DNA of 64,000 nt from Patescibacteria group bacterium (GCA_041645165.1 JBAZQN010000004.1:18789-82788), one strand, 5' to 3'; numbered from the stretch's first letter, positions 9,896 through 46,085 are shown. Notes: generated by a model from the sequence alone, not told the origin. Translations and numbers: made by a program.

Positions 9896-11032
9896 TCATA
9901 GTAATTTTACAAACTCATCAAACAGATAATTCGTATCATTCGGTCCTGGATGCGCTTCGGGATGAAATTGCACCGAGATAAACGGCAGCCTCCGGTGTGC
10001 GATACCTTCAACGGTCTTGTCGTTGGCATTGCGGAACGATACGCGCCACTGCTTCGGCAGAGAAGATTCGCGCACCGCATATCCATGGTTCTGCGAGGTG
10101 AGCACGCAACGATGGGTGCCTTCAATGCGGCACGGCTGATTCTGCCCTCGATGGCCATAGGGCAACTTATATGTGTGAGCTCCCGCGGCAAGCCCCATCA
10201 ATTGGCTCCCAAGACAGATGCCAAAGAGGGGACGCTTTTGCCGAAACGCTTTTTGCAGAAGAGCGATAGTAGCGCGGCACTGCATGGGATCTCCCGGCCC
10301 ATTTGAAACCACAATGCCGTGAGCGCGAAGCCGGGTAAAATCATAGTCATAGGGCACGCGGGTGACCCGCACTCCGCGCGCTACAAGCGAACGCACGATA
10401 CTTTCTTTCGCGCCGCAATCAACTAAAATGACGTGCTTTGCGCCTCGCCCGACATGCGATACGCGCGGTACCGTGACCTGTGCCACAAGATTTTCTTCGT
10501 TGGGATCTTTGTTTTCCACATACGCATGACTGTGCACAATCGTCCCGCGCATCACCCCGTGCGCTCTGATCTTTTTAGTAAGCGCGCGGGTATCTACGCC
10601 CGCAAGGCAGGGCACTCCTTCCCTTATCAGCCACCGCGAAAAAGAATGCACGCCCTCCCAATGGCTCCAATGCTCAACGCACTCGCTTACAATCACCCCA
10701 CGGACCTGCATCTTTTTTGACTCCCAGCTCTTAGCGGATGGGACGCCGTAATTGCCAATAAGCGGATACGTAAACACGAGTATCTGCCCCCTAAATGAGG
10801 GGTCAGTGAGCGACTCGACATAGCCGACCATGCCGGTGGTAAATACTACCTCCCCCCCCGCAGATACAGGCGCCCCGCAGGACACCCCAGACCATCGTGT
10901 GCCGTCCACAAGGGCAAGTTCGCCCGCTAAAGGTGCCTTCCTAAAAGGCCAAAAAAATCCCCCTTGTGGGGGAATGGGAAAAACGGCAGTAGTTTGGGTG
11001 TTGGGCGCACGTCTGGTAGAGCGAAGAGGCAT
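9896..11032 (-). CDS. carA: carbamoyl-phosphate synthase small subunit (glutamine amidotransferase)
   Basis: GEVVFTTGMVGYVESLTDPSFRGQILVFTYPLIGNYG. GATase triad region GICLGSQLMGLAAG...HGYAV...FHPEA. The N-terminal ~40 aa are atypical and contain a GC palindrome. Confidence 0.9.
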   Translation of the reverse strand: MPLRSTRRAPNTQTTAVFPIPPQGGFFWPFRKAPLAGELALVDGTRWSGVSCGAPVSAGGEVVFTTGMVGYVESLTDPSFRGQILVFTYPLIGNYGVPSAKSWESKKMQVRGVIVSECVEHWSHWEGVHSFSRWLIREGVPCLAGVDTRALTKKIRAHGVMRGTIVHSHAYVENKDPNEENLVAQVTVPRVSHVGRGAKHVILVDCGAKESIVRSLVARGVRVTRVPYDYDFTRLRAHGIVVSNGPGDPMQCRATIALLQKAFRQKRPLFGICLGSQLMGLAAGAHTYKLPYGHRGQNQPCRIEGTHRCVLTSQNHGYAVRESSLPKQWRVSFRNANDKTVEGIAHRRLPFISVQFHPEAHPGPNDTNYLFDEFVKLL

Positions 11033-11336
11033 GGATGGAAAGGTTGAATTAAACCTTTATCTAAGACGCCCTGTAAAAATAACTTCACGCTTTGATTAAC
11101 TGCCTTGCCTGAAATAATAGCATTATATACAAGAACGACCCTATAAGTTATTTTTTCTGGCACCCTAAAAGACAGTATAACGGCAAAAAGGCTATCAAAC
11201 AAGTGGTTTAAGTCGAGTGTGCCCCCCCTGCCATCTTTAGGGGGCTCTAAGGCAAGATATTTTTCCACAGGCAGATGAATCCAAAGTGTTCATTTTTTCG
11301 CTTAAGTACGAATAAATTCAGCATTTTCCTCCCTTC

Positions 11337-11365
11337 TTGACTTTAGCTCTTTTCTCTGCTATACT
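11337..11365 (+). promoter_or_regulatory. near-consensus sigma70-type promoter TTGACT-N17-TATACT
   Basis: ttgact at 11337-11342, a 17-nt spacer, and tatact at 11360-11365. It lies ~550 nt upstream of the next + strand CDS. Confidence 0.45.
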
Positions 11366-11731
11366 GCTGATGTAAAAATAAAGTCACCCAAGTTAAGAAG
11401 CGGAGAGCGGAGGTCTCATCTTAGCTTTAAAAACCAAACTTAAGGTATTACCTCCGTTTTCTACTTCTCGAGGATAATATTCGCCGATATTATCCGCAGT
11501 TATAAAAATAACTGAAAAAATAAAAATAAAAAGTTTTATTTCGTACGCAATTACCCTTAAAAAAGGTATTGAATGTACGAGGAGGGAGGTAGAGAATATA
11601 GGGCTATTTAAAAATTCGGCAATAGCCTAAAGGGGCTTACATCATCATCTCCGCTTTTACCCACCAGGGTGAGAACGGGGTGGGTATTAGTCCCTTGAGG
11701 CCCACGCTGGACCCTATATTCTTTTTTATTC

Positions 11732-11758
11732 GGCCCCTAGCGGGGCCTCATTTTTTTT
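11732..11758 (+). terminator. Rho-independent terminator (ggcccc-tagc-ggggcc followed by T9)
   Basis: GC hairpin immediately followed by tcatttttttttat. It closes a ~370-nt non-coding transcript from the promoter at 11337. Confidence 0.45.
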
Positions 11759-11913
11759 ATTGCGCACTTATCCTATACATGGTAGTATCAATACACCTTA
11801 GGCGCCATAAAAAAAATAACAAATCCAGCCATTGGCATGATAGTTCTGGAAAACAAGGCTAAACCTTATGCTTAAGTGAAATGTTATTTTTTTAAGCGCC
11901 CTTACCTCATGAT

Positions 11914-12303
11914 ATGACTTTTCCGCTTTCACTTATCAAAGAGCAAAAAAAGAAACTCGAGCAAGAGCGCGACCAGCTGAAAAAACAGCTTGACGCCATC
12001 TCGAAACGCGGCAAGGGGAAAAAGCCCCGCGGGCTTGATGCGAAATTCCCCTCGTACGGAGACAAGGAGGATGAGAACGCCGCAGAGGTTGCCCAATATT
12101 CTGATGATCTTTCGCTCGAAGAGACGCTTGACCATGCGCTCGCCGACGTAGAGGGCGCACTGAAACGCATAGAGAACAGCACGTATGGCGTATGCCGGCA
12201 CTGCGGCGAAGCGATCGACCAACGGCGCCTTAACGCGCGCCCCTCTTCTTCCTCATGCGTAAAATGCAAACAGAGGCTGAAATCCGGCGGAGGAAAAAAA
12301 TAA
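11914..12303 (+). CDS. DksA/TraR-family C4 zinc-finger protein
   Basis: Coiled-coil N-terminus followed by CRHCGEAI...RRLNARP....CVKCK, the DksA/TraR signature. Confidence 0.7.
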   Translation: MTFPLSLIKEQKKKLEQERDQLKKQLDAISKRGKGKKPRGLDAKFPSYGDKEDENAAEVAQYSDDLSLEETLDHALADVEGALKRIENSTYGVCRHCGEAIDQRRLNARPSSSSCVKCKQRLKSGGGKK

Positions 12304-12327
12304 TATTCCATTGCGCGTAATCAGTGT

Positions 12328-12768
12328 ATGGATGTGAGGAAGTATTGCGGAGATAACAACAATGACATAATCGTATCCGCGCTTTTCGTACTCGACCGTG
12401 TATTGAAATGGCGCGCGCTCACCCATCCTCCTTCCCCCCCGGATGGTTTTTTTGTATATCACCAAAATCCCGGCATCGCGTTCTCACTGCCTCTAGCACC
12501 TATCCCGCTGATCACACTGCTTATCCTTGGCGTCGCGACAGTCGCGTGGCTGTATATCCAGCAACGTAAAAAATCAGTGCGGCACGCGCTCCCCTACCTC
12601 CTCATACTCGCAGGCGCCGTTTCCAATATCATCGACCGTCCGCTCTCAGGCGGAGTGATTGACTATTTTTTTCTTCCCCCTTTGGGATTGTATTTTAACA
12701 TTGCGGATGTCATGATAGTGGGAGGAATACTATTGCTTATCTTCAATAAAGATGAGAAGATAACATAA
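12328..12768 (+). CDS. lspA: lipoprotein signal peptidase (signal peptidase II)
   Basis: HQNPGIAFSL, AVSNIIDRPLSGGVIDYF, YFNIADVMIVGG motifs. Four TM segments. Confidence 0.8.
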   Translation: MDVRKYCGDNNNDIIVSALFVLDRVLKWRALTHPPSPPDGFFVYHQNPGIAFSLPLAPIPLITLLILGVATVAWLYIQQRKKSVRHALPYLLILAGAVSNIIDRPLSGGVIDYFFLPPLGLYFNIADVMIVGGILLLIFNKDEKIT

Positions 12769-12794
12769 TCCTTGAATGGATAAAATATAATATA

Positions 12795-12925
12795 AAATCA
12801 GGTCATGAATTTTCAATTCTCAATTTACAATTTTCAATCAATGACCTCATGTCTCTATTCTCATACATTGAACCATTGATTCATTGAAAATTATTTGAAA
12901 ATTGATACCTGAAAATTTAGGTACT
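12795..12925. repeat. AT-rich hairpin-rich intergenic element (aattttcaa / ttgaaaatt word family)
   Basis: ggtcatgaattttcaattctcaatttacaattttcaatcaatgacc hairpin plus cattgaa...ttgaaaatt repeats. The same words recur at 29190-29369. Confidence 0.5.
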
Positions 12926-12930
12926 AACTT

Positions 12931-14454
12931 ATGGCTACCAAAGTCTTTTCTGCGGCAATCGTAGGTTTGGAGAGCGAGCTCGTCGAAGTGGAGGCTGATG
13001 TCGGCAATGCGCCGTCCGCATTTATCATCGTGGGGCTCCCTGATAAAGCCGTGGAGGAATCAAAGGAGCGTATCAGATCAGCAATGAAAAATTCCGGATT
13101 GGAATTTCCGCGCCCCAAGGTCACGGTGAACCTCGCGCCCGCAGATTTGAAAAAAGAAGGCCCGAGCTACGATCTGCCCATCGCGGTGTCCGTGCTTGCC
13201 ACGCAAGAAGCGTTCATGTGGGCTCCTGAAGACCAGCGTGCGCTGTTTGTGGGGGAATTGTCCCTTGATGGCCACTTGAGACCTATCCCGGGCGCGCTTT
13301 CCATCAGTCTCCTTGCGAAACGTAAGGGGTTCCCGCGGATTTTCCTCCCTGTGGAAAACGCGGCAGAGGCTAACCTTGTGCCCGACTTGGAAATCATGCC
13401 GGTTACTACGCTGTCAGCGCTCGTACTCCACCTTACAGGTGAACGCCAAATAGCGCCGCTTAATTACACCCCTCCCGCCCCTCCGGAGGGTTCAACAAGC
13501 CGGTATGATATGTGCTATATCCAAGGCCAGGAGCACGTGAAGCGCGCGCTCGAGATCGCTGCCGCGGGCGGGCACAATGTGCTGATGTCCGGACCGCCCG
13601 GCGCGGGGAAAACCCTGCTGGCGAGAACCCTCCCTTCCATACTCCCCACCCTCACGCTAGAGGAAGCGCTCGAGGTTACCCGCCTTTATTCTGTGTCAGG
13701 CGTGATGCCAAAGGAATCCCCGCTCCTCTGGGAACGGCCGTTCCGCGCCCCTCACCATACGGCGTCAGGAGTCGCGGTGGTGGGCGGAGGCACCATTCCC
13801 CGCCCGGGGGAAATCAGCCTCGCGCATCGCGGTATTTTATTCCTTGATGAATTTCCGGAATTCGGACGGGCGGTGCTTGAAAATCTGCGCCAGCCGCTGG
13901 AAGACGGCGTGGTGGCGGTCTCCCGCGCGGCAGGCACCATGCAATTCCCCGCGAAATTCATGCTCATCGCGGCCATGAACCCATGCCCCTGCGGTTATGC
14001 CACTGACCCGACGCGCCATTGCCTCTGTAGTGTGGGACAAGTGATGAAATACCAAAAACGGCTTTCAGGGCCGCTCCTCGATAGGATCGACATCCACACA
14101 GAAGTCCCAAGGCTCAAATTCGAGAAACTTGCCGACACTGCGGTTGCTGAATCCTCATCTGCGATCAGGAAACGCGTAGAGCAGGCGCGGCAGAAGCAAT
14201 ATGCACGCTTCAAAGGGTCCCCCATCCTTACCAATGCCGAAATGTCGTCGCGTGAAGTGCGCGAGTATTGTCCGGTGAGCGTTGGAATACAAACCATCCT
14301 TAAAAACGCGGTCACCACCATGCATCTCTCCGCGCGAGGCTATTACCGCGTGCTCAAAATCGCGCGCACCATCGCGGATCTCGGCGGCGAAGAGCCGATT
14401 ACCACTTCACACGTCACCGAAGCGCTCCAATATCGGCCGAAGGTGGGAGAATGA
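12931..14454 (+). CDS. YifB/ComM-family Mg-chelatase-like AAA+ ATPase
   Basis: Lon-like N-terminal domain. Walker A LMSGPPGAGKT and Walker B ILFLDEF. C-terminal MgChelatase domain. 507 aa. Confidence 0.9.
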   Translation: MATKVFSAAIVGLESELVEVEADVGNAPSAFIIVGLPDKAVEESKERIRSAMKNSGLEFPRPKVTVNLAPADLKKEGPSYDLPIAVSVLATQEAFMWAPEDQRALFVGELSLDGHLRPIPGALSISLLAKRKGFPRIFLPVENAAEANLVPDLEIMPVTTLSALVLHLTGERQIAPLNYTPPAPPEGSTSRYDMCYIQGQEHVKRALEIAAAGGHNVLMSGPPGAGKTLLARTLPSILPTLTLEEALEVTRLYSVSGVMPKESPLLWERPFRAPHHTASGVAVVGGGTIPRPGEISLAHRGILFLDEFPEFGRAVLENLRQPLEDGVVAVSRAAGTMQFPAKFMLIAAMNPCPCGYATDPTRHCLCSVGQVMKYQKRLSGPLLDRIDIHTEVPRLKFEKLADTAVAESSSAIRKRVEQARQKQYARFKGSPILTNAEMSSREVREYCPVSVGIQTILKNAVTTMHLSARGYYRVLKIARTIADLGGEEPITTSHVTEALQYRPKVGE

Positions 14455-14579
14455 GACAGTCTTCAGTTTATTAGTTTTTCAGTTCATCAGTCGTCAGATT
14501 GGAGGGCGGTATTGATATAGTGTATTCAATAAACGCAAGAAGTCCCCAGGATGCACGAAGTATCTGGGGACTTTCGGTT

Positions 14580-15950
14580 TTAACGATCGAATGGCATCTT
14601 GCGATTAATCCATTCGATCAATTTCTGTCGCCACCGAGGTCGTTTCCCGCCTTGAGGAAGGAGAGGGAAGGTGGTGTTTTTCCCAAATGGCGTGAGAAGG
14701 ATGATGATGGTAAGGTAGGCAAGGTTGCTTGCCCACCTATGCCATCTGCGTGGGTGGGTGAGGGGAGAGCCCAGCGCGGCGAAGTCGAGGTTATAGAAGA
14801 AACTTGGATGACGAACTGTCTTCTCTACTGGCGCGGCGAAATTTACACTCATCCAGTTGTCGTTCTTCGGGATGAACATCTTCGCTAGATATGGTCTTGC
14901 CACTGCTCCGCAGAAGAAACTTTTACGAACACTGTACCAAACAGTCTTCGCAAGCGTTCGTAAGTTATCTTCAGGAAAGCCAAACACCATCAACAGCTCC
15001 GCCGTAATCCCGACTTCACGGCAAATTTCCAGAACACGGTCACCGAGGGATAACCGGTTGTGGGTTTTATTCTCATCACGCCAGACTTTCTCATCCGTAC
15101 CGTCGAAACCGAACCCAACCGCAAAGAGGTTGGCTTTCATTACCAATTCGTGAAAGTTCGGCAAGGTTTTATAGGCAGTGATAAATGAGGAAATGCAGGA
15201 GAGTCCACGGATGCGAATCTGCACCCCGGTCTTCTCACTCACATCTCCCACAATGGTGAGAAAGTCAGCGAACAACCGCGGGCTTTGAAACAAGTCCAAA
15301 CTGGAGATATAGAATTGTAATTTGGACAGTCCAAATTCTCTTGCCTTACCTGCGAGGTATTGCAGGTCGGTCCGAATCTTCTCGAGAGAACGGAACCGTT
15401 CCTGTCGTGATTTTGCCGCACCGCAGAATCGGCACGCAAAACGGCAGCCCTGCGCTACAAAGAGACCTGCTTCTTGCTCGAGATAAAGTTTCAACGCCTC
15501 GTCCGAGATAGTTTTGTACATCTTAACGCAGTCGATCTCAAACACATCTGGAAGTTGGTTAACGCCGAGTGCTTTTTTCAAGGTGCTATCATTGTTAATT
15601 TGGATAGGTTTATCGCCGAAGAGCGTTTTGAACTGATTAGGAAGCAATCCTTCAGTCACTTGTCCGCCAATAAGAATCGTGGCGCGAGGATTAACTTGAT
15701 ACACTTGGTTCGAGAACTGAATAGCGTCCGGCATATTAGAACTACCAACAAGAGAGGTACCAATAAAATCAGCTGCACGGACTTTATCTTGTACCCATTG
15801 CTCGTCAAGGGAGTTAAGATTGAGATCAATCAACTCGACCTCAAAGCCTGCCTCAATAAGTTGTGCACCCACAACGATCAGGGTGCTGGGCAGGTATATT
15901 TGCCGTTTCCCAAACGGGTACGGCAGATTAAACAGTGATATCTTTTTCAT
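14580..15950 (-). CDS. radical SAM protein with N-terminal B12-binding-like domain (second rSAM locus). The C-terminal ~50 aa are low-complexity and may be over-extended
   Basis: CxxxCxxC motif AQGCRFACRFCGA. N-terminal Rossmann-like domain. A glycine-rich GFGFDG region. Confidence 0.7.
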   Translation of the reverse strand: MKKISLFNLPYPFGKRQIYLPSTLIVVGAQLIEAGFEVELIDLNLNSLDEQWVQDKVRAADFIGTSLVGSSNMPDAIQFSNQVYQVNPRATILIGGQVTEGLLPNQFKTLFGDKPIQINNDSTLKKALGVNQLPDVFEIDCVKMYKTISDEALKLYLEQEAGLFVAQGCRFACRFCGAAKSRQERFRSLEKIRTDLQYLAGKAREFGLSKLQFYISSLDLFQSPRLFADFLTIVGDVSEKTGVQIRIRGLSCISSFITAYKTLPNFHELVMKANLFAVGFGFDGTDEKVWRDENKTHNRLSLGDRVLEICREVGITAELLMVFGFPEDNLRTLAKTVWYSVRKSFFCGAVARPYLAKMFIPKNDNWMSVNFAAPVEKTVRHPSFFYNLDFAALGSPLTHPRRWHRWASNLAYLTIIILLTPFGKNTTFPLLPQGGKRPRWRQKLIEWINRKMPFDR

Positions 15951-15985
15951 GATTTAGCTCCTTTTTAAATTGTCAAAGAATTTTC
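15951..15985 (-). promoter_or_regulatory. conserved leader motif TTGACAATTTAAA(AA)GGAG immediately upstream of the start codon (copy 1)
   Basis: Minus-strand reading: ttctttgacaatttaaaaaggagctaaatcATG. It is almost identical to the leader of the adjacent gene (16560-16595). Confidence 0.4.
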
Positions 15986-16004
15986 GATTTTAGTTTTAGG
16001 ACTC

Positions 16005-16559
16005 TTACCAAGAGAATTCGAGCCCCAGCAGGTTTCCTGCCCACTGGGTTGGTTTCCAAAGCCTCACTTTACAGCAGAAGCGCCCCCATCTGGCTTTGAC
16101 AAAGGGTCCAACTTTAAGCTGACGGCTCTCATTGAAGATCCAAATAAACTGTTCCCCAATTCCAATATCGAGTGATTTCTTTTTAAGAAGATGGAGGTCT
16201 GTGAGGTGGTAAAGCCATCTCCCCTTCCTAGTCACTGAAACTTGATTAAGGCCAGTGACATATTTGTTATCGACATAGCACTCAAAAGAAAATCCTGCAT
16301 AATGGCCAAACAGTATCCCAATGGCTGGGATAATCTTGAGTGGAGTGATTTGGAATGGTGTCGATTTGCCGATGAATGTTTCTAAGGTTTTTTCAAAGTG
16401 GTTATATCTTGCATCTATCCAAATTCCGCCCACTTTGATACTCCCCCATAGAAATGGCTCTATCCCTTTTTCGGTAGAAGCCATGAACAGCGTAAAATCT
16501 TGCGCGGACGCGGTGTCCACGCATGCGAGGGCTAAAAGCACAAATAATATCTTTTTCAT
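16005..16559 (-). CDS. hypothetical secreted protein (signal peptide MKKILFVLLALACVDTASA)
   Basis: Classic Sec signal peptide. 184 aa. Aromatic-rich with a C-terminal EFSW. It is paired with the rSAM gene and shares its leader motif. Confidence 0.5.
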   Translation of the reverse strand: MKKILFVLLALACVDTASAQDFTLFMASTEKGIEPFLWGSIKVGGIWIDARYNHFEKTLETFIGKSTPFQITPLKIIPAIGILFGHYAGFSFECYVDNKYVTGLNQVSVTRKGRWLYHLTDLHLLKKKSLDIGIGEQFIWIFNESRQLKVGPFVKARWGRFCCKVRLWKPTQWAGNLLGLEFSW

Positions 16560-16595
16560 TGTATTTCTCCTTTAAATTGTCAATGATTCTATATT
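16560..16595 (-). promoter_or_regulatory. conserved leader motif TTGACAATTTAAAGGAG (copy 2)
   Basis: Minus-strand reading: tcattgacaatttaaaggagaaatacaATG. Confidence 0.4.
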
Positions 16596-16799
16596 TCTAT
16601 ATTTCGGATTTTAACGAGGTAGTATATGCCTGTGATAGCAAATGTATAGGCTATCTAAGACACTTACATTAGATATTGCAATTTTTTGGCTAATATAATA
16701 TAATAAAAGTGTCGGGGAAGTTTCCACAACATTGTCATGTAGAAGCCACTTTACGCCTTGAATAACGCAAGTTCACGCCATTGGTCATAACTCCCCTAG

Positions 16800-16875
16800 C
16801 CCCTCTTATCCTAAAGAGGGGGGAAATTGTGCGACACCCTCACCTTAATCCTCTCCCTTTCTAGGAAGAGGGGGT
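16800..16875. repeat. two GC-rich palindromes (cccctcttatcctaaagagggg; ctctccctttctaggaagaggg) upstream of TrmB paralog B
   Basis: Members of the CCCCTC..TTA..TAA..GAGGGG hairpin family seen throughout the window. Confidence 0.7.
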
Positions 16876-16886
16876 ACGAAAGGAAT

Positions 16887-17648
16887 ATGAAAGAAGATTT
16901 ATTAAAAATACTCGCAGATATTGGATTTTCGGAGAAAGAGGCGAAAGTGTATCTCGCCCTGCTTGCGCTTGAAGCGGCGACGGCGAATGAGATCGCAAAA
17001 AAAGCAGACATCAATCGGACATCAGCATATGATGTGTTGGAAATTTTAATTAAAAGAGGAGTGGTGAGCAAATACAAGAAGAAGAGCCGAACGTTTTTTA
17101 ACGTGAGCGATCCGAGGAAACTCATTGCATATCTCGAGCATGAAAAAGCTGATCACGAGAAGACGATTGAGAAACAGAAGACAGCGGTGTCCGTAATCCT
17201 GCCCGAGCTTATTTCTTTGCAAATGCCCTTAAGCACGAGGCCGAAGGTGCAGTTCTATGAAGGCGAAAAAGGAATGCGGGAGGCGTATGAAGATACGCTT
17301 AACGCGAAGGAAGGAATCTTGGCATATGCAAACGTTGAGACTGTTCATGCGGGTATTCCGAATTTTTTTCCGGAGTATTATCAGAGGAGGACAAAACTAG
17401 GAGTACCTATTAAAGCAATTTTTACAGAAAACGAACTTTCGCGTGAACGCGCTTCTCATAATCGGGAAGAGCTACGCCAAACAAAATTTTTACCTGATGC
17501 AAGCATGAAATTCTCGCCCGAGGTGAACATCTATAATAATAAAGTACTTATCGCGTCATGGCAGGAAAAAATGGCTGTGATTATTGAGTCCAAGGAATAC
17601 GCAGATCTCATGCGGCTGACGTATCAGTTGTTATGGGATCGGCTTTGA
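16887..17648 (+). CDS. TrmB-family HTH transcriptional regulator (paralog B). The ORF-track TTG start at 16827 is probably upstream of the true ATG
   Basis: MKEDLLKILADIGFSEKEAKVYLALL aligns with the N-termini of paralogs A and C. An RBS-like aaaggaa precedes the ATG. Confidence 0.7.
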   Translation: MKEDLLKILADIGFSEKEAKVYLALLALEAATANEIAKKADINRTSAYDVLEILIKRGVVSKYKKKSRTFFNVSDPRKLIAYLEHEKADHEKTIEKQKTAVSVILPELISLQMPLSTRPKVQFYEGEKGMREAYEDTLNAKEGILAYANVETVHAGIPNFFPEYYQRRTKLGVPIKAIFTENELSRERASHNREELRQTKFLPDASMKFSPEVNIYNNKVLIASWQEKMAVIIESKEYADLMRLTYQLLWDRL

Positions 17649-17760
17649 CTTTCTAGTGCCGTTACAATATAGTTTTCGGTGATGCGTTTCCATAATTCAT
17701 CCTATTTTATTATATATTTTATGAATGGTATATCTGAAATTCAAATTGTAACGGTACTAG

Positions 17761-17786
17761 ATTCCGGATCAAGTCCGGAATGACAC
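17761..17786 (+). promoter_or_regulatory. ATTCCGGATCAAGTCCGGAATGACAC palindromic leader element immediately upstream of pyrC
   Basis: Perfect hairpin attccgga-tcaag-tccggaat followed by gacacatacctATG. A near-identical GGAATGACAC.TAC..T-ATG tail precedes pyrD. Confidence 0.5.
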
Positions 17787-17792
17787 ATACCT

Positions 17793-19058
17793 ATGTCCCA
17801 ACTCATTCGTTTCCCCGGCATGGTGGATATGCATGTGCATATGCGCGAGCCAGGGATGGCTCAAAAAGAAGACTGGCTCACGGGAACTTCTGCGGCAGTC
17901 GCAGGCGGAGTGGTTGCGGTCGTTGATATGCCGAATACCATTCCGCCCACGTTCACGAGTGAGGCATTAGATGAAAAGGAAAAAATCGCGCGCGAGAAAG
18001 CCCTTTGTGATTACGGATTCTATTTCGGTTCTGACGGCAGCAACCTTGGTGAATTTGAAAAAGTATATGACCGCGTATTAGGGTTAAAACTTTATTTGGA
18101 TGAAACCACAGGTGCGCCACCTCGTCATTCCCATGGAAATGGGAATCCAGATAGTAAAAATAAATCGATTCCTGTTTTTTCTGGATCCCCGATCAAGGCC
18201 TGCCCCGCACTTGATGCGGGGTCGGTGATGACATTGAAGCAGGGGGCGAACACGTTATTACTTGAGGATGAAAAAATAATTAAAAGCATATTTCGCGCCT
18301 GGCCGCGCGGCAAGCCGATTCTTGTGCACGCGGAAGGCGAGAAGCTTGCACGCGCGATTATCCTAGCTCAAAAGAATTACCAAAAACTCCACTGCTGCCA
18401 TATTGCCACGAAAAAGGATATAGAAGTAATCGCAAAGGCCAAGATGAAGGGAATATCACTCACCTGCGAAGTCTCACCGCATCATTTATTCCTCACCAAT
18501 AAGGACAGAACGCGGCTAGGATCACTCGCAATGATGAAACCGGAGCTGGGTACGGAGGCGGATCAACAAGCATTGTGGAATCATATTCAAAAAGGCACTG
18601 TTGATTGCATTGCTACGGACCATGCACCGCATACACTTGAGGAAAAATTGACCTCAGATCAACACAGTGACCCCTCCTCTGTCCCCCCCTTACTAAGGGG
18701 GGGATGGGGGGGTCCTTGGGGCGTGCCCGGGTTAGAGACTGCAATGCCTCTGCTTTTAACTGCGGTTGAAGACGGAAAATTAACCCATGAAGAACTCACG
18801 CGACTTACCAATATAAATCCGTGCCGTATATTGGGAATACGTCCTGCAGGACAGACGTATGTGGAAGTAGAAACCGGCATACAATACCAACTGGATGAAA
18901 GAACGCTAAAAACCAAATGCGGCTGGTCGCCGTTTGCTGACATGACGTTGAAAGCGCGCGTGGCGCGTACGATCATTCGTGGCGTTGAGGTATATAAAGA
19001 TGGTAAGATAGTGGCAGCGAAAGGCGTGGGAAGGCCGATCTTGTCATCTCCGACTTGA
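17793..19058 (+). CDS. pyrC: dihydroorotase
   Basis: Metal-binding DMHVHMREPG, DHAPH and amidohydrolase fold. It contains two in-frame palindrome-encoded insertions (HSHGNGNPDS at 18127-18146; DPSSVPPLLRGGWGGPWG around 18682-18702). Confidence 0.85.
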   Translation: MSQLIRFPGMVDMHVHMREPGMAQKEDWLTGTSAAVAGGVVAVVDMPNTIPPTFTSEALDEKEKIAREKALCDYGFYFGSDGSNLGEFEKVYDRVLGLKLYLDETTGAPPRHSHGNGNPDSKNKSIPVFSGSPIKACPALDAGSVMTLKQGANTLLLEDEKIIKSIFRAWPRGKPILVHAEGEKLARAIILAQKNYQKLHCCHIATKKDIEVIAKAKMKGISLTCEVSPHHLFLTNKDRTRLGSLAMMKPELGTEADQQALWNHIQKGTVDCIATDHAPHTLEEKLTSDQHSDPSSVPPLLRGGWGGPWGVPGLETAMPLLLTAVEDGKLTHEELTRLTNINPCRILGIRPAGQTYVEVETGIQYQLDERTLKTKCGWSPFADMTLKARVARTIIRGVEVYKDGKIVAAKGVGRPILSSPT

Positions 19059-19105
19059 TCGGAGATCTAGTCAAAACATTAAAAAAAACAATTCATTTCT
19101 ATTGA

Positions 19106-19160
19106 TTTCTGGATTCCCGCTGGAGCCTGTCCCGTACCGCGATACGGGGCGGGAATGACA
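19106..19160 (+). promoter_or_regulatory. TTTCTGGATTCCCGC...GCGGGAATGACA inverted-repeat element upstream of pyrD
   Basis: The same terminal 15-mer and 12-mer recur at 40973-41003. It encloses the cccgtaccgcgatacggg hairpin. Confidence 0.5.
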
Positions 19161-19169
19161 CCTACAACT

Positions 19170-20090
19170 ATGACTACACTACAAACCACATTTTGCGGCG
19201 TAGAATTTGAGAATCCTTTAATTTTGCCTTCTGGCATCATTACTGAAATCCCCGCGCATAAAAAAGCAGAAGACGCAGGAGCAGGAGGCGTAACGCTCAA
19301 ATCCTTTACCGTGCAGCCGCGCGAAGGGCACCCCTTGCCGCGCATTATAAAATATGACCATGGTTTCTTAAATTCCGTAGGCCTGCGTAATGCGGGTATT
19401 GAAAAAGGCAAAGAGGCGGTCAAGGAATATCTCTTGCACGCGGGCGTCCCCACCATCGTGAGCGTATTTGCGACAAATGTGAAAGATTTTGTCCGGCTGG
19501 CGGAAACGTTTGCGCCGCTTAACCCTGCGATGATTGAGCTTAATCTAAGCTGTCCGAATGTGGAAGACGAATTTGGCGACCCAAGCGGCAATACTGCCGA
19601 GAGCGCGGGCAATGCAGTGAAAGCAGTGAAAAAGGTTGCGGGCGCGGTGCCGCTTATCGCAAAACTGTCACCTAATGTGGCGAGCATTGCGGATGTGGCG
19701 AAATCGTGCGAAGCGGCAGGCGCCGATGCGATTTCTGCCATTAATACGGTAGGGCCGGGCATGGTTATTGACATTAAAACGCGTAAACCTGTGCTCGGGC
19801 ATCTCAAAGGAGGCGTTTCGGGCGCGGGGATTTTTCCGGTTGCCGTGGCGAAAATCTATGAGCTCTATGACGCGGTAAAGATTCCCATCCTCGGCATGGG
19901 AGGCGTGACGAGCTGGCAGAATGCGGTTGAGATGATGATGGCGGGCGCGTCCCTGGTAGGCGTGGGTTCGGCAGTATACAGCAAAGGATATGTAGTGTTT
20001 GAGGAGATAAAGGAAGGACTCACAAGATACCTGGAGGAGAATGGATTCAATAATATTAATGAGGTGGTGGGGTTAGCGCACAACCATTAA
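19170..20090 (+). CDS. pyrD: dihydroorotate dehydrogenase catalytic subunit (class 1). The ORF-track start at 19155 lies inside the upstream repeat; the Met at 19170 is favoured
   Basis: FENPLILPSG, NSVGLRN, LSCPN, IAKLSPN, MGGV..W motifs. Confidence 0.85.
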   Translation: MTTLQTTFCGVEFENPLILPSGIITEIPAHKKAEDAGAGGVTLKSFTVQPREGHPLPRIIKYDHGFLNSVGLRNAGIEKGKEAVKEYLLHAGVPTIVSVFATNVKDFVRLAETFAPLNPAMIELNLSCPNVEDEFGDPSGNTAESAGNAVKAVKKVAGAVPLIAKLSPNVASIADVAKSCEAAGADAISAINTVGPGMVIDIKTRKPVLGHLKGGVSGAGIFPVAVAKIYELYDAVKIPILGMGGVTSWQNAVEMMMAGASLVGVGSAVYSKGYVVFEEIKEGLTRYLEENGFNNINEVVGLAHNH

Positions 20091-20199
20091 ATCCCAATGA
20101 CCATCCTTCGACAAGCTCAGGATGACAAGAAGTCATTGTCATGGTGAGCCGAGTCGAACCATGGAATTTAGTGCTTGGAGCTTAGAATTTTATTGAGAT

Positions 20200-21195: not shown

Positions 21196-21215
21196 TTATG
21201 AAATGAGAATATAAT

Positions 21216-21701
21216 ATGCAAAAAATTATTATTGGAGTAATGGGACCAGGAGAGAGTGCCGCCGAATCAGACAGAGAACATGCTTATCAAATGGGGAAAC
21301 TTATTGCCCAAGCAGGGTGGGTATTGTTAACCGGCGGTCGGAATAGAGGGGTGATGGATGCTGCGAGTAAAGGTGCAAAAGAGCATGGTGGCCTTACCAT
21401 AGGAATCTTACCTACCTCAGATCCAAATACTGTGTCTGATGCTGTTGACATGCCGATATTTACAGAAATGAAAAGCGCACGGAATAATATCAATGTACTC
21501 TCTAGTAGAGTAATCGTGGTATGTGGTATGAGTGCGGGAACTGCTTCTGAAGTTGCAATGGCTCTCGTGGCAAACAAACCAATCATTCTCATTGATCAAA
21601 ACAAAATAAGTAAGGATTTTTTTCAAACTTTAGGAAAAGAAAAGGTCAATTTTGTAGATACACCTCTAGAAGCTCTTGATAAGATAAAACACTTATTATG
21701 A
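21216..21701 (+). CDS. LOG-family / TIGR00725-like Rossmann-fold nucleotide-binding protein
   Basis: IGVMGPG....GGRNRGVMDAASKGA...GMSAGTASEVAMAL, resembling the PGGxGTxxE LOG signature. Confidence 0.55.
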   Translation: MQKIIIGVMGPGESAAESDREHAYQMGKLIAQAGWVLLTGGRNRGVMDAASKGAKEHGGLTIGILPTSDPNTVSDAVDMPIFTEMKSARNNINVLSSRVIVVCGMSAGTASEVAMALVANKPIILIDQNKISKDFFQTLGKEKVNFVDTPLEALDKIKHLL

Positions 21702-27952: not shown

Positions 27953-27963
27953 AGAGAACTGCG

Positions 27964-34457: not shown

Positions 34458-34495
34458 ATTTCTGCATTAGGAAATATCAATATCTGGGGCTATTT

Positions 34496-39445: not shown

Positions 39446-40174
39446 ATGAAACTTTTCATTGATTCAGCCAATCTCGAAGAAATCAAAACCGCGCTATCAT
39501 GGGGCATGGTGGACGGCTGTACCACCAACCCTACGCTTGCCGCCAAGAACGGCGCTAGCCCCGTTAGAAGTAATCCCGCTCAGCGGGATGCAGTTCCGAC
39601 GCTGGAACGGACTTCTAACGGGGTAAACGATTTCCTCCCCATCGCGAAGCAAATCCTCTCGCTCGTCCCCGGACCTGTCAGCCTTGAAGTGCTCTCCCAA
39701 GACTATGCAGGCATGACGCGGGAAGGAGTGGCGCTCGCAAAACTTGGGAAAAATGTAGTCGTGAAGCTCCCCACCACTATTGAAGGCTTGAAAGCATGCC
39801 GTGCGCTCGTCAATAAAAAAATACGCGTCAATATGACGCTGGTATTCTCAGCTCTGCAAGCCTTGCTCGTCGCCAAATCCGGCGCGACCTATGTTTCTCC
39901 ATTTGTCGGACGGCTGGATGACGCGGGGCACGACGGCAACGAGGTGGTGCAAGAAATTATTGAAATCTACGATAATTATGGATTTAAGACCCAGGTCCTG
40001 TATGCCAGCGTCCGCTCACCCTTGCACGTGAAACAAGCGGCGCTCATGGGATGCGACATTGCCACGTGTCCCTTCTCCGTTTTGGAAAAACTGGTCCAGC
40101 ACCCCTTAACCGACACCGGGCTTAGCAAATTCCTCTCGGACTGGAAAAAGTCAGGGTTGAAACCTCTTGTCTAA
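39446..40174 (+). CDS. transaldolase / fructose-6-phosphate aldolase family protein (Fsa/TalC type). Start trimmed to the Met matching family N-termini
   Basis: MKLFIDSANLEEIK...GCTTNP...KLPTT...SPFVGR motifs. It contains a 65-nt in-frame nested-palindrome insertion at 39559-39623. Confidence 0.85.
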   Translation: MKLFIDSANLEEIKTALSWGMVDGCTTNPTLAAKNGASPVRSNPAQRDAVPTLERTSNGVNDFLPIAKQILSLVPGPVSLEVLSQDYAGMTREGVALAKLGKNVVVKLPTTIEGLKACRALVNKKIRVNMTLVFSALQALLVAKSGATYVSPFVGRLDDAGHDGNEVVQEIIEIYDNYGFKTQVLYASVRSPLHVKQAALMGCDIATCPFSVLEKLVQHPLTDTGLSKFLSDWKKSGLKPLV

Positions 40175-40184
40175 CTCCCCTAAC

Positions 40185-40241
40185 CCCTCTTACTCTAAGA
40201 GGGGTACTCGTTTCTACTCCTCCTCTTGAGATAAGAGGAGG
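40185..40241. repeat. two GC-rich palindromes (cccctcttactctaagagggg; cctcctcttgagataagaggagg) downstream of the transaldolase gene
   Basis: Same hairpin family as 16800, 54038 and 54137. Confidence 0.7.
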
Positions 40242-40324
40242 CTGGGTGGAGTTATGAATCAAATAATACAGAACGCCTCGACCGAAAAATCACGATCGAG
40301 GCTTTCTTTTTTCGCATGCGCTGG

Positions 40325-40916: not shown

Positions 40917-41003
40917 ATTCCAGACTTGATCTGGAATCCAGAAAAATATACAAAATCGACGTTTCTTTTGGCTTTCTGGATTCCCGCCTTCGCGGGAATG
41001 ACA
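40917..41003. repeat. two ATTCC/GGAAT-family hairpin elements (attccagacttgatctggaat; tttctggattcccgc-cttc-gcgggaatgaca)
   Basis: The second copy has the same terminal sequences as the element upstream of pyrD (19106-19160). Confidence 0.7.
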
Positions 41004-43491: not shown

Positions 43492-43654
43492 TGAGAAACT
43501 CTAAGTGCTAAGTTCTAAATTCTAAACATGATTCGACAAGCGTTCGACTGAGCTCACGCCGAAGGCTCACCATGACAACCGTCTTTGTCACCCTGAGCCA
43601 GACGAAGGGTGTTTGAATTTGAAGCTTGGAACTTTGATTTTTTGCACTCAAACC

Positions 43655-44788
43655 ATGCCGTTACAAACTTATAAAAGGGTCATTATAAAAATTGGCACGG
43701 GAGTACTGACGAATAACGACGGCCAACTCGACCGCGCGCAACTGTCGTCTTCATTTGAAGATCTTGCCGGCGTGATCGCGCAGGGTATCCACGCAGTGCT
43801 TGTCACCTCGGGAGCGGTCGCGATGGGGAGAAGCGCGCTCACCGTCCCTCCCCGCAACGAGCACAGCCGCCAGGCGTGCGCAGCGATCGGCCAACCGCTG
43901 CTGATGCATGCGTACGGGGAGCTGGCGGCGCGCCACGGCCTTACCATTGCCCAGCTTCTTATCACGCGTGAGGATTTTGATAACCGCGCGCGCTATCTCA
44001 ATATCCGCAATACGCTCCATGCGCTCCTCAACATGAACGTGCTGCCGATTATTAATGAGAATGACGTCGTCGCGGTGGACATCGCAGGGGGCGACGCGTT
44101 TGGCGGCAATGATGCGGTGGCCGCCATGGTAGGGCTTCTTATCGACGCAGACCTTCTCTTGATCCTTGGCGAAACGGACGGGGTGCTCGATGCCCCGCCT
44201 GAAACCGGAAGGGCGCAGCGCATTCCCGTAGTGGAACAAATAAACGAGGAACTTCTTGGCGTCGTGGGGAAAGACTCACCCTTGGGGAGAGGCGGCATGA
44301 AAAGGAAACTGGAAGCGGCCAAACTTGCGACCCATTCAGGCATTGAAACCATTATCGCCAACGGGCGGCAAGAAGGGGTGATCACCAACATCATCCTGCA
44401 TGCCGCTGACACGGGCACCCGGTGTATGCCCGCGCAAGAAGCACATTCAAGCCGCGGCCGGTGGCTCATCGGAGGCGTGGTGCAAAAAGGTTCGGTCACG
44501 GTGGACACGGAAGCCGCCAAGGCGCTCCAAAAGGGAAAAAGCCTTCTCCCGATAGGAATCCTAGAGGTCCAAGGGAATTTCGGACGCGGCGAAGCCATTC
44601 GCGTGCTCGATGAACGCGGCGCCAGTATTGCCGTAGGGCTTGCCAATTATGCTTCAGGAGATTTAGATAAAATCAAACGCCTTCCTTCTTCCGAGATTGA
44701 AGCGATGCTCGGCTATTCTGCGGGTGATGAAGCGATTCACAAAGACAATCTCGCGCTTACCAACAGTACTTTAACGTATGGGAAATAA
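43655..44788 (+). CDS. proB: glutamate 5-kinase with C-terminal PUA domain. Start trimmed to MPLQTYKRVIIKIGTG
   Basis: Amino-acid kinase fold KRVIIKIGTGVL...; PUA-like tail GSVTVDTEAAKAL..GKSLLPIGI. Confidence 0.85.
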   Translation: MPLQTYKRVIIKIGTGVLTNNDGQLDRAQLSSSFEDLAGVIAQGIHAVLVTSGAVAMGRSALTVPPRNEHSRQACAAIGQPLLMHAYGELAARHGLTIAQLLITREDFDNRARYLNIRNTLHALLNMNVLPIINENDVVAVDIAGGDAFGGNDAVAAMVGLLIDADLLLILGETDGVLDAPPETGRAQRIPVVEQINEELLGVVGKDSPLGRGGMKRKLEAAKLATHSGIETIIANGRQEGVITNIILHAADTGTRCMPAQEAHSSRGRWLIGGVVQKGSVTVDTEAAKALQKGKSLLPIGILEVQGNFGRGEAIRVLDERGASIAVGLANYASGDLDKIKRLPSSEIEAMLGYSAGDEAIHKDNLALTNSTLTYGK

Positions 44789-46085
44789 TTTTTCTCCGCT
44801 TACGATTGCACAACGCGCACGGACCGCAAGCCTTGCACTCCAGGCAAGCTCTGCCGTAGTGAGAAGCCGCGCTCTTTTGCTTTCCGCGAGAAACCTTGTA
44901 CGCCATAAGCGTGCCATTATTGCCGCGAATAAGGCAGACCTCGCGCAGGCAAAGGGAAAAGTGCCGCAGGCGTTTCTTGACCGCCTTTCGCTGAACGCGA
45001 AACGGTTCCGGGATATGGAGGAAGCGGTACAAGAAATTGCGCGCCAAAGCGATCCGTTGAATGAGCTCGTGGAGCAGAAGAAACTGAAAAACGGCGTAGT
45101 GCTTAAAAAAGTGCGCGTGCCTATCGGCGTGCTTTTTATCATCTATGAAGCCCGCCCCCATGTAACTGCGGACGCCGCTGCTTTAGCGCTCCGCGCAGGA
45201 AACGCCGTCATCCTCAAAGGGGGGTCCGAGGCGCGGAGCACCAATCGCCTTATCGCTCAATGTTTCCAACAAGCGCTAAAAAGCGCAGGACTTCCCCTCC
45301 ATGCCGTGCAATTCATTGATACCGCCGACCGCACCGTCGTGAAAAAACTGTTAAAATGTGCCGACGACATTGACCTTGTCATACCCCGCGGCGGCTATGG
45401 CCTCGTGAAGTGGGCGCGCAAGGAATCTGACATTCCTTCGCTTTCCCACGCGGAAGGGCTTGACCATACCTATGTGGATGCGTCTGCGGACATTCCGCTG
45501 GCACTCAAGGTGATAGTGAATGCGAAGACGAGCTTCCCTGCAGCCTGCAACTCGCTTGATACCCTCTTGGTGCATAAAAAAATCGCTCCACAATTATTAC
45601 CATTATTGCAGAATGGGTTAATACCCTATCACGTAGAACTGAGATGTGATACCGCTGCTCTGCGCATTTTCAAATCAAGGAAACCGCCTCTCATATCCCC
45701 TCCTTACCAAGGAGGGGAAGGGGAGGTCTCCATAAAAGCGGCAACCGCGAAGGACTGGGATACTGAATATTTAAGTTTAACCATGGGCATTAGAATAGTG
45801 CCAAACGTCGACGAAGCAATTGCGCACATCAATGCGCACGGCTCAAAACATTCTGAAGGCATTATCGCGCGCGATAAAAAAACAATCGCGTTATTCAAAA
45901 AAAATGTGGATGCAGCAGGTATATTCGTAAATTGCTCCACCCGCCTTCACGACGGCGGCGTCTTCGGGCTTGGGGCGGAAATGGGCATCAACACCGGCAA
46001 GCTCCATGCCCGCGGCCCGGTCGGCGCCAGGGAGCTTACGACCTACAAATGGATCGCGGAAGGGAAGGGACAAATTCGCACGTAA
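44778..46085 (+). CDS. proA: gamma-glutamyl phosphate reductase
   Basis: ALDH-like fold, catalytic Cys region FVNCSTRLHDGG, 435 aa. In-frame palindrome insertion at 45697-45717 (SPPYQGGEGE). Confidence 0.9.
   Translation: MGNNFSPLTIAQRARTASLALQASSAVVRSRALLLSARNLVRHKRAIIAANKADLAQAKGKVPQAFLDRLSLNAKRFRDMEEAVQEIARQSDPLNELVEQKKLKNGVVLKKVRVPIGVLFIIYEARPHVTADAAALALRAGNAVILKGGSEARSTNRLIAQCFQQALKSAGLPLHAVQFIDTADRTVVKKLLKCADDIDLVIPRGGYGLVKWARKESDIPSLSHAEGLDHTYVDASADIPLALKVIVNAKTSFPAACNSLDTLLVHKKIAPQLLPLLQNGLIPYHVELRCDTAALRIFKSRKPPLISPPYQGGEGEVSIKAATAKDWDTEYLSLTMGIRIVPNVDEAIAHINAHGSKHSEGIIARDKKTIALFKKNVDAAGIFVNCSTRLHDGGVFGLGAEMGINTGKLHARGPVGARELTTYKWIAEGKGQIRT

Follow-up and report, generated by a model that had tools for sequence, protein, structure and literature searches.

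Small class II intrastrand-triplex-motif repeats, several of them in-frame in housekeeping genes, on a Patescibacteria contig

Short hairpin-bearing repeats recur, both between and inside genes, along a 64,000-nt stretch of DNA from a Patescibacteria group bacterium (GCA_041645165.1, JBAZQN010000004.1:18789-82788; this whole stretch is hereafter called the window), which is part of a 101-kb metagenomic contig (European Nucleotide Archive (ENA) ERZ27249422 k141_1052321) whose proteins are labelled “Patescibacteria group bacterium” at NCBI. We find that these elements are probably small, non-coding, G/C-rich repeats of the class II intrastrand-triplex-motif (TM) kind known from Escherichia coli as BoxC, PIT or TM_ECO, which are gained and lost and sometimes come to lie in-frame in genes. 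Repeats of this kind are already known, and other lineages have them too; what is new is their frequent in-frame residence in Patescibacteria housekeeping genes. Among the matches listed, 12 of the 24 copies in loci of the candidate phyla radiation (CPR) and the window clade lie in long open reading frames (ORFs), compared to 7 of 177 in other phyla. An earlier note on this DNA had described the hairpins as an undescribed palindromic family of this lineage, resembling Rickettsia palindromic elements (RPEs) and inserted into surface loops of enzymes; the anatomy, distribution and protein placement reported below lead to a different assignment, while much of the described behaviour holds.

Results

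A mirror-image purine tail accompanies the hairpins

Hairpins in the window were counted if perfect and led by an all-pyrimidine 5′ arm of at least 6 nt containing at least 4 C, and counts were compared to those in 100 dinucleotide shuffles. Pyrimidine-arm-first hairpins of ≥6 nt number 17, against a mean of 0.39 (maximum 3) in the shuffles, and those of ≥8 nt number 10, against 0.01; every hairpin listed in the earlier note was found in place. Purine-arm-first hairpins are not enriched (2 in the window versus 0.68 in the shuffles). Because a pyrimidine-then-purine hairpin reads alike on both strands, this asymmetry of the arms stems from the element itself, not from a bias between strands. 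When G/C-rich hairpins of any kind with stems of ≥7 bp are considered, the window holds 29 where 6.7 ± 1.9 are expected.

Ten window copies share a further segment that the earlier note had missed. Each element, about 33-47 nt in size, runs from a pyrimidine arm through a loop to the complementary purine arm (together forming a hairpin of 6-10 bp), then through a spacer of ~3 nt to a purine tail, and this tail is the mirror image of the purine arm, neither its direct nor its inverted repeat, with A or T standing opposite A. The mirror rule covaries with the arm from copy to copy, as in the arm/tail pairs AAGAGGGG/GGGGAGTT, AGGGGGAGA/AGAGGGGGT, AAGAGGAGG/GGTGGAGTT and AAGGAGGGGA/AGGGGAGGTC, and arms of ≥8 nt with a mirror tail occur in eight copies in the window and in none of the shuffles. 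The spacer measures 3 nt in most copies (range 0-5, with 0 in the pyrC and proA copies) and the hairpin loop 3-6 nt in most copies when A-T extensions are counted.

This is the block order of a class II intrastrand triplex under the ITxF definition (Holder et al. 2015), in which a third block lies antiparallel to the purine block (G.G-C, A.A-T and T.A-T triads), stems measure 6-15 nt with at most one mismatch and loops 1-6 nt. Nine window copies show both arms and the tail with at most one mismatch; their mirror matches range from 6/6 to 9/9 and 9/10, with lower scores for the direct-repeat control, and one copy, at 54039, has a 9-nt loop that goes beyond the loop limit. The pyrC, ribD and proA copies carry tails on both sides, and these tails can pair with each other, as can those of an inverted intergenic pair at 40173-40253. 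A reading of the tail as the outer stem of a nested palindrome was ruled out, as 57 of 58 cross-phylum copies among the matches listed are one-sided. The G/C stems of 9-10 bp fold strongly, with minimum free energies (MFE) of −10.7 to −21 kcal/mol and z-scores of −1.6 to −4.8 under DNA parameters (ViennaRNA, the hairpin part alone being modelled). We also considered and dropped Shine-Dalgarno sequestration as the role of CCTCCTTA/AAGGAGG, as most copies do not precede start codons and the tail follows mirror symmetry, not a spacing to ATG.

The tail rule holds across phyla

We scanned one genome per GTDB species with the seed hairpin CCCCTCCTTANNAAGGAGGGG, a query that did not include the tail. 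The scan returned at least 120 loci from more than 15 phyla, where a rough estimate gives ~4 by chance; matches fall in Nitrospirota, Acidobacteriota, Thiomargarita/Thioploca, Ignavibacteria, Chlamydiota, Omnitrophota, Chloroflexota, Poribacteria, Planctomycetota, Bacteroidota, several CPR groups and others. Among the matches listed, 58 of 81 plus-strand seed hairpins are followed at 2-5 nt by a perfect GGGG[A/T]GG tail (chance ~0.002 per site), none of the 81 carries a direct-repeat tail, and only one of the 58 is two-sided. Mirror-tail statistics outside the window were computed on 857 kb from other phyla, and here 70 of 96 non-seed pyrimidine-then-purine hairpins with other arms also have mirror tails; where the arm is informative, meaning that the mirror and direct predictions differ, 37 tails are mirror-only and none is direct-only. 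The tail rule outside the window is a three-way covariation that a plain palindrome, a nested palindrome or base composition alone does not explain. Viral contigs of IMG/VR carry the seed hairpin as well, in 27 stretches (L131-L157), with a perfect mirror tail in 15 of 19 plus-strand matches. The motif and its tail rule are hence not confined to this lineage, as the earlier note had supposed. Rfam matches in the window are two tRNAs only, and in 18 loci from other phyla no Rfam match was found at the motif positions.

Copies that obey the tail rule lie in long ORFs in 3 of 9 recognisable CPR loci, compared to 7 of 177 from other phyla (Fisher p = 0.008, among the GTDB matches listed). Outside the window clade, genic copies stand in-frame in a Chloracidobacterium homologue of diaminopimelate (DAP)/ornithine decarboxylases and in a CPR RarA, and are absent from solved homologues; genic copies are not unique to CPR. 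A sense-strand bias of intragenic copies was entertained and dropped, the copy in locus L028 being antisense. Some genomes of Thiomargarita, Pyrinomonadaceae and Nitrospira hold many copies with shared flanks.

Two arrangements of the motif were noted among these loci. A Thiomargarita metagenome-assembled genome, which gives at least seven of the listed loci, contains a head-to-tail tandem array of TMs with a 41-nt period (L040, 7128-7312). A variant with an extra G/C hairpin between purine arm and mirror tail occurs at L037, L045, L057, L062, L077, L116 and L124 (Acidobacteriota).

In-frame copies are lineage-specific insertions that vary between close relatives

Five of the ten window copies (in pyrC, twice in valS, in ribD and in proA) are located within ORFs, and the products of these ORFs can be aligned with solved enzymes to either side of the insertion. 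The earlier note had counted eight in-frame interruptions of conserved enzymes; seven stand (pyrC, pyrF twice, valS twice, ribD and proA), and alignment with orthologues confirms that the palindrome-encoded segments of these five genes are lineage-specific insertions, whereas the eighth, in carA, falls upstream of conserved sequence. Its assignment of all sites to a single palindrome family applies in part: one pyrF hairpin (20781) has different arms, CCCCGCA/TGCGGGG, and the other (20329) has no mirror tail. Where an insertion is cleanly delimited, its length (138, 51, 45 or 36 nt) is a multiple of three; the motif is read in all three frames (PLLTKEG, VPPLLRGG, SPPYQGG), and in-frame stops are absent. 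The closest comparison is the sister contig L003 (GCA_040960315.1), which is fully syntenic with the window and whose proteins are ~83-90% identical. In the comparison proposed by the earlier note, presence is polymorphic between sister genomes, which lack several of the window copies and carry copies of their own elsewhere.

The pyrC gene (17793-19058, + strand) holds a TM copy at 18669-18714, with the blocks GACCCCTCC / tctg / TCCCCCCCTT / act / AAGGGGGGGA / TGGGGGGGTC, which encodes ..DPSSVPPLLRGGWGGPW.. and is two-sided, with a mirror tail of 9/10 on the + strand and 8/10 on the − strand. Its hairpin, at 18682, sits in a 51-nt in-frame block that is absent from L003 and from human CAD but present in P0122, the closest PyrC relative (85% identical). 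Alignment to the human CAD dihydroorotase (DHOase) reveals two additions in the window protein, ~46 aa after ETTG and 17 aa (..DPSSVPPLLRGGWGGP..) before GVPGLET. The first is a 138-nt insertion (18114-18251, + strand; 46 aa, PyrC aa 108-153) directly after T105-T106-G107, which the earlier note had not recorded; it is not a TM but a composite built from other hairpin families, namely GTCATTCCCat..atGGGAATCCAG, TCCCCGA..TCGG and a nested CCCCGCA..TGCGGGG. This block is absent from L003 and P0122, and related insertions occupy the same site in P0124, P0127 and P0129. P0122 thus has the second site filled and the first empty, L003/P0123 has neither filled, and P0127 carries a different TM at the second site; PyrC insertions are independent and recur at the same two sites across the clade, where PyrC measures 344-436 aa compared to about 350-355 aa in typical CPR homologues.

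Two insertions in pyrF lie outside the TM family. The first (20317-20359, + strand; site 20329 of the earlier note) is a 36-nt in-frame insertion with the hairpins CGCCC gat GGGCG and CCCCTCT ca AGAGGGG and is absent from L003; a mirror tail was looked for across 20317-20359 and none was found. The second (20770-20880, + strand) has the form GTCATTC[..CCCCGCA aa TGCGGGG..]GAATCC, and its hairpin lies in a ~72-nt block (gaps of 11 and 61 nt) that is absent from L003 and extra with respect to the Leishmania OMPDC. It belongs to a second hairpin repeat family, GTCATTCCC(gc)..(gc)GGGAATCCAG, which encodes peptides such as RHSR..GNP and carries further hairpins nested in its loop. Sites of this family, both intergenic and in-frame in pyrC and pyrF, are 18114-18251, 40975-41003 and 20770-20810 in the window and, outside it, L093, L129 and L130 pyrC site 1; with L093 being a Dehalococcoidia locus, the family looks widespread.

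Both valS copies (gene 23007-26114, − strand) lie on the − strand and have a 3-nt spacer and a 9/9 mirror tail. The copy at 23487-23520 (arm AGGGGGAGA, tail AGAGGGGGT, encoding ..AQVLPLERGRQRGGV..; hairpin at 23501) occurs in the window, in L003 and in L004, but not in L005 or in ValRS proteins that are more distant; its pyrimidine arm is decaying in L004, and in L003 its spacer has received a nested 36-nt insertion (~7340-7380 of that contig), placed exactly where the variant loci above have their extra hairpin, between purine arm and mirror tail. The copy at 24926-24959 (arm AGGGAGGGA, tail AGGGAGGGT, encoding ..GSLPKKGGTKGGC..; hairpin at 24939) adds a net 45 nt with respect to L004 and L005, a 54-nt block standing in place of 9 nt. 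L003 does not have this copy. Its TM in that loop is a different one (CCCCTCCTT/AAGGAGGGG), so that the loop received two independent TMs and marks a hot spot; a second L003 copy occupies a site left empty in the window. BLASTP coverage of ValRS in close relatives reaches only 42-49%, as such insertions split the local alignments.

The ribD copy (27466-27512; gene 26825-27952, − strand) lies in the linker between the deaminase and reductase domains and encodes ..PPTSSPLSGGRRGGW..; with purine arm AGGGGGGAG and tail GTGGGGGGT, it has tails of 9/9 on the + strand and 8/9 on the − strand. Its hairpin at 27481 accompanies 13 aa that are extra with respect to Bacillus subtilis RibG, and the copy is common to the window, L003 and L004. 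In proA (44778-46085, + strand), the copy at 45682-45728 (arm AAGGAGGGGA, tail AGGGGAGGTC at 9/10, encoding ..PPLISPPYQGGEGEV..; hairpin at 45697) adds about 12 aa to the protein as compared to ProA of E. coli and Thermotoga maritima.

The ValRS protein has two further peculiarities. An extra, beta-rich domain of ~110 aa (aa 455-575, ~24392-24752) is confidently modelled by AlphaFold2 (AF2), absent from the seven relatives aligned and without a Pfam match; its assignment to ASCH was rejected for want of Pfam support. A 10-aa insertion, ASVATSAGKP (24231-24260), derives from a G/C hairpin, CCGCC..GGCGG, has a predicted local distance difference test score (pLDDT) below 50, and is common to L003 and the distant Komeilibacteria ValRS P0018, being absent from the closer L004 and L005.

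Intergenic copies are denser than genic ones

Although 88% of the window is coding, half of its TM copies are intergenic, so that intergenic DNA is ~7-fold richer in copies per base (5 in 7.8 kb versus 5 in 56 kb genic), an excess that fits purifying selection against most genic insertions. The first, upstream of a TrmB-family gene (16789-16821, − strand), reads AACTCCCC tag CCCCTCTT atccta AAGAGGGG, and its tail GGGGAGTT matches 8/8 at spacer 3, compared to 6/8 for the direct-repeat control. Two more lie between convergent genes at 40173-40204 (− strand; purine arm AAGAGGGG, tail GGGGAGTT at 8/8, spacer 3) and 40219-40253 (+ strand; CCTCCTCTT gagat AAGAGGAGG ctg GGTGGAGTT, tail at 9/9 with A-to-T substitutions versus 6/9 for the control), and form an inverted pair whose tails base-pair with each other. 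Upstream of tRNA-Lys stands CCCCTC ataatataa GAGGGG tgt GGGGAGTTAT (54039-54072, + strand; tail 6/6, spacer 3), and at 54128-54161 (− strand) a 9-10 bp hairpin, TATAACTCAC / CCCTCCCTT atctt AAGGGAGGG, has a degenerate tail of only 6/9. Three of the five intergenic sites named in the earlier note hold these true members. The 7.8 kb that follow the window (gyrA, S1, ftsH) yielded no further TM copies. Half of the window copies are clustered in an 11-kb pyr/valS/rib region (16.8-27.5 kb), and this clustering may reflect local spread.

The two remaining intergenic sites were rejected as family members: the hairpin at 11223 has a weak 6-bp stem, a 9-nt loop and no tail, and that at 32004 lies between convergent genes and resembles a terminator in both directions. 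Likewise, the carA hairpin at 10959 was rejected as a family member and as an in-frame insertion, as it covers codons 21-25 of the longest ORF, upstream of the point where similarity to solved CarA/CPS begins (aa 28-36). On the coding strand it shows a 6-bp stem followed by T7, which is terminator-like, and it has no mirror tail; in L003 the hairpin (10957-10982, − strand) is perfectly conserved, although its flanks vary more. A leader or attenuator hairpin is the more likely reading, and it could act as a pyrimidine-responsive attenuator. In an intrinsic-terminator test (G/C stem plus T-run), only the non-members at 10958 and 32003 scored, TM copies being without T-runs. A hairpin in UvrD at 49818 was also rejected as an insertion, since it sits in a conserved motif.

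Insertions fall mostly in low-confidence coil, and one copy is conserved at the DNA level

AF2 models of the window PyrC and ValRS have mean pLDDT values of 87.7 and 90.9, with confidence falling at the insertions. PyrC aa 111-151 are modelled as coil with pLDDT <50; aa about 290-310 form short low-confidence helices (pLDDT 58-60) between flanks at 96-98. In ValRS, the segment of the 24939 copy (aa 383-398) is coil at pLDDT 72, and that of the 23501 copy (aa 862-880) is mostly coil at 64-77. The proposal that insertions occupy surface loops thus agrees with most sites, which are low-confidence coil between well-modelled elements, and needs qualifying at the first pyrC site, that of the non-TM composite block. 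There, K99 of the window PyrC aligns to the carboxylated Lys1556 of human CAD and T105/T106/G107 to residues 1562/1563/1564, the first two being Thr1562 and Phe1563. By alignment, the 46-aa block hence falls after CAD residue 1564 and before about 1577; in the human enzyme, residues 1560-1570 make up the catalytic flexible loop (PMC12809426). As judged from this alignment, the block lies in the region that holds the DHOase catalytic flexible loop, and a “harmless surface loop” appears too simple a description.

In the three genomes that share the ribD copy, third-codon positions within it are identical at 14-16 of 16, against an identity of 46-71% elsewhere in the gene (p = 0.001-0.005, Fisher test). 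Although the sample is small (16 codons), this pattern is suggestive of constraint at the nucleotide level, or of homogenisation, in some copies at least.

The motif belongs to a known structural class, in an unusual setting

The anatomy of the window copies is that of the class II (purine-motif) intrastrand triplex of E. coli, known as BoxC, re-described as PIT and studied as TM_ECO (Holder et al. 2015, PMC4666352), and the element is in this respect not undescribed. Published TM_ECO copies, e.g., CCCTCTCCCTTGAGGGAGAGGGTTAGGGTGAGGGT, share this block order and likewise show a second loop of 3 nt and T facing A, and sequences such as CCCTCTCCC ttga GGGAGAGGG tta GGGTGAGGG give a stable triplex in vitro (PMC4666352). 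BoxC/PIT/TM_ECO and the window copies are alike in the succession of pyrimidine stem, 3-6 nt loop, purine stem, ~3-nt spacer and mirror purine stem, in having T or A opposite A, in total size (about 34-37 nt), in occurring singly or as inverted pairs, in varying in presence between close relatives and in having no associated transposase, as far as the Pfam matches in ~72 kb of contig show for the window copies. TM loci are hypervariable between strains, and G/C-rich TMs are abundant in Enterobacteria and Cyanobacteria (PMC4666352). The TM_ECO consensus CCCTCNCCC N3-6 GGGNGAGGG N3 GGGNGAGGG has no match in the window, where arms are variable and 6-10 nt long; because they fail this consensus, the window copies are, on sequence, assigned to the structural class and not to the TM_ECO sequence family. 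Some loci of other phyla do have arms like those of TM_ECO (GGGAGAGGG with GGGTGAGGG). Location and host differ as well: TM_ECO is “always located intergenically” in E. coli (PMC4666352), whereas five of the ten window copies are in-frame in housekeeping genes, and the host belongs to the Patescibacteria, not to Proteobacteria or Cyanobacteria.

The likeness to RPEs drawn in the earlier note holds for behaviour and not for membership. In both cases the element is inserted in-frame into conserved genes and tolerated by the host protein; work by Ogata et al. in 2000 and 2002 reportedly described RPEs as selfish-looking repeats that lie in-frame in conserved genes, are translated and are tolerated in loops. 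RPEs, however, are plain palindromes of about 95-150 bp that add about 30-50 aa and are known from Rickettsia only, and are not triplex motifs, whereas the window elements measure 33-47 nt, add 12-17 aa, carry a mirror tail and occur in many phyla; a published table gives RPE lengths of about 95-136 bp (PMC2267715). No triplex architecture has been reported for the Cod-2 repeat of Corynebacterium diphtheriae (PMC2267715). Repetitive extragenic palindromes (REPs), bacterial interspersed mosaic elements (BIMEs) and REPINs, the latter mobilised by REP-associated tyrosine transposases (RAYTs; PMC3116915), resemble the window elements as short G/C-rich hairpins that are mostly intergenic and often in inverted pairs. 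The window elements differ in having no conserved REP head, in their third mirror segment and in often lying inside genes, and a RAYT was not found in ~72 kb. Nor do they look like MITEs (small transposable elements with terminal inverted repeats), as target-site duplications are absent at the filled-versus-empty junctions of pyrC, pyrF and valS and a parent insertion sequence was not seen. From their descriptions, the small dispersed repeats (SDRs) of cyanobacteria are similar in being tens of nt long, in forming families set by structure with compensatory changes more than by sequence, in nested insertion and in having no identified mobilising enzyme. SDRs, according to Elhai et al. in 2008, are said to be 21-27 nt hairpins found in heterocystous cyanobacteria only, with no triplex tail described. 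In literature searches, no in-frame palindromic or triplex repeats were found for CPR.

Genomic surroundings

The window encodes carAB, pyrC, pyrD, pyrF and pyrE (6509-22333), a riboflavin operon (26825-30432), valS, proBA and other housekeeping genes. De novo synthesis of pyrimidines and riboflavin, here encoded on a Patescibacteria contig, is uncommon in CPR. An LDcluster4-family gene (21216-21701) stands between pyrF and pyrE in the window and not in L003. At 34000-36000, an island of 30% G+C interrupts the ~50% G+C contig and contains a 501-aa ORF (34496-36001, − strand) without a Pfam match. Finally, an identical 44-nt duplicate, which contains the hairpin CACCACC tctctgc GGTGGTG, is present at 1664-1707 (intergenic) and at 6514-6557, overlapping the 3′ end of carB.

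Discussion

How TM repeats of this kind might arise and persist can be outlined as follows. By analogy with circular dichroism and nuclear magnetic resonance work on TM_ECO single strands, a single DNA strand carrying the motif would fold into the hairpin, with the tail lying back in the major groove as G.G-C, A.A-T and T.A-T triads. Such a folded strand may be copied and pasted during replication or repair, either by means of a factor acting in trans or by a switch of template from one copy to another at stalled forks, and copies would come and go over the time in which species or genera diverge. Genic copies would survive only where they are a multiple of three bases without an in-frame stop and fall in permissive loops of variable length; they would then be translated as coil segments rich in Pro/Ser/Leu ... 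Gly/Arg/Glu, the encoded peptides being essentially neutral passengers, and would afterwards be conserved at the DNA level or decay. A bolder form of this proposal, which we regard as possible and hold tentatively, is that the triplex fold is itself the selected, mobility-conferring feature of ultra-small (~35 nt), structure-defined mobile DNA, spread over more than 15 phyla and viral contigs and a recurrent source of protein loops in essential enzymes of the gene-dense Patescibacteria genomes.

Several observations weigh against the first of these proposals. The occurrence of identical low-complexity C/T arms in more than one phylum is no proof of common descent or of horizontal transfer, and as arm sequences vary among all the intragenic copies, it is not demonstrated that they descend from a single master copy. 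Neither a transposase nor a RAYT is among the Pfam matches of the called genes in ~72 kb of contig (the window and 7.8 kb beyond), and neither target-site duplications nor defined termini are visible at the filled-versus-empty junctions of pyrC, pyrF and valS; these absences together disfavour a classical transposon. Nucleotide-level conservation is significant for the ribD copy alone, resting on 16 codons, and the third-codon excess in the older valS copy (23501) is not significant. Holder et al. did not detect the triplex in duplex DNA or in vivo (PMC4666352).

Among the alternatives, the one that best survives, although we consider it unlikely, is that the hairpins arise locally at polypyrimidine/polypurine runs by template switching or slippage during replication (quasi-palindrome formation) and are then fixed, without mobility. 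The differing intragenic arms speak for it, as do short runs in empty sites (CCTCCC in the L003 pyrC, GGAAAGGA in the valS of L004 and L005) and the link drawn between TMs and replication stalling and local instability (Holder et al., PMC4666352). Template switching, however, yields inverted and not mirror repeats and so cannot create the tail rule; moreover, near-identical copies stand at unrelated loci (16789 and 40173 in the window; CCCCTCCTTAC[T/G/C]AAGGAGGGG twice in the L003 valS and once in the window proA), and the many copies with shared flanks in Thiomargarita, Pyrinomonadaceae and Nitrospira genomes also tell against a purely local origin.

Slightly less likely still is a simple two-arm palindromic mobile element of RPE, REP/REPIN or MITE type, moved by a transposase such as a RAYT, with the G-rich tail incidental. 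Recurrence of the hairpins in intergenic and genic DNA and their polymorphism between sister genomes would suit such an element, and some copies are indeed two-sided and fold as nested palindromes. Yet the tail obeys a mirror rule, not a direct or complementary one, in the window and across phyla, and these tail statistics weaken the two-arm reading, as does the scarcity of two-sided copies (1 of 58 among the matches listed). The elements are also much smaller than RPEs (33-47 nt versus about 100-150 bp), have no conserved GTAG-type REP head and no Rfam family match, and lie in ~72 kb where Pfam identifies no Y1 transposase or RAYT.

Selection on an RNA hairpin (an mRNA stabiliser, translational pause site or terminator), with DNA structure irrelevant, is in our view improbable. 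The strong folding of the 9-10 bp G/C stems would be expected of such a hairpin, and a number of intergenic copies are found upstream of genes or where convergent genes meet, but a plain hairpin has no need of a mirror tail, and intragenic copies occur in both mRNA orientations (antisense in L028, sense in the window valS). Purine-motif triplexes are reported not to form in RNA, and neither promoter nor terminator activity was found for BoxC/TM_ECO (PMC4666352).

A much poorer prospect is that the Gly/Pro-rich peptides belong natively to the proteins and were selected as such, codon choice having produced the DNA symmetry as a by-product: the ribD and 23501 valS peptides are conserved in three genomes, but orthologues that are 83-90% identical in other respects lack the inserted peptides, as do all solved homologues, the DNA motif is also present in non-coding DNA and all three of its frames are read, and third-codon positions more conserved than the host gene point to DNA-level constraint. 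Least credible of all is that the insertions are untranslated, through RNA removal or a ribosome bypass like that at the mitochondrial byp elements of Magnusiomyces, or are the assembly artefacts allowed for in the earlier note; GC-rich hairpins can cause assembly and translation problems in general, but nothing was found here in favour of this reading, every insertion is free of in-frame stops and divisible by 3 in length, neither of which would be needed for bypass or excision, PyrC and ProA are identical in the ENA assembly and an independent Logan assembly, and the older insertions are common to genomes from other samples.

Since the 1990s, BoxC/PIT motifs have had no established function or mode of spread, and whether their triplex forms in cells has stayed unresolved. 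The covariation of the mirror tail across phyla, together with the conservation of the ribD copy, is evidence from natural selection that bears on this question. If the triplex fold proves to be the selected feature, the three-way covariation and the third-codon conservation above that of the host gene would constitute the first comparative-genomic evidence that intrastrand DNA triplexes matter in vivo, and the elements would represent a second, independent “RPE-like” system. In-frame colonisation of essential genes by selfish repeats, known mainly from Rickettsia, is now seen as a common state in Patescibacteria and an occasional one in Acidobacteria. Such colonisation offers a possible explanation for some of the lineage-specific loop insertions and length variation in CPR proteins, and insertions of this type can mislead annotation, domain calling and the alignment of phylogenomic markers for CPR genomes.

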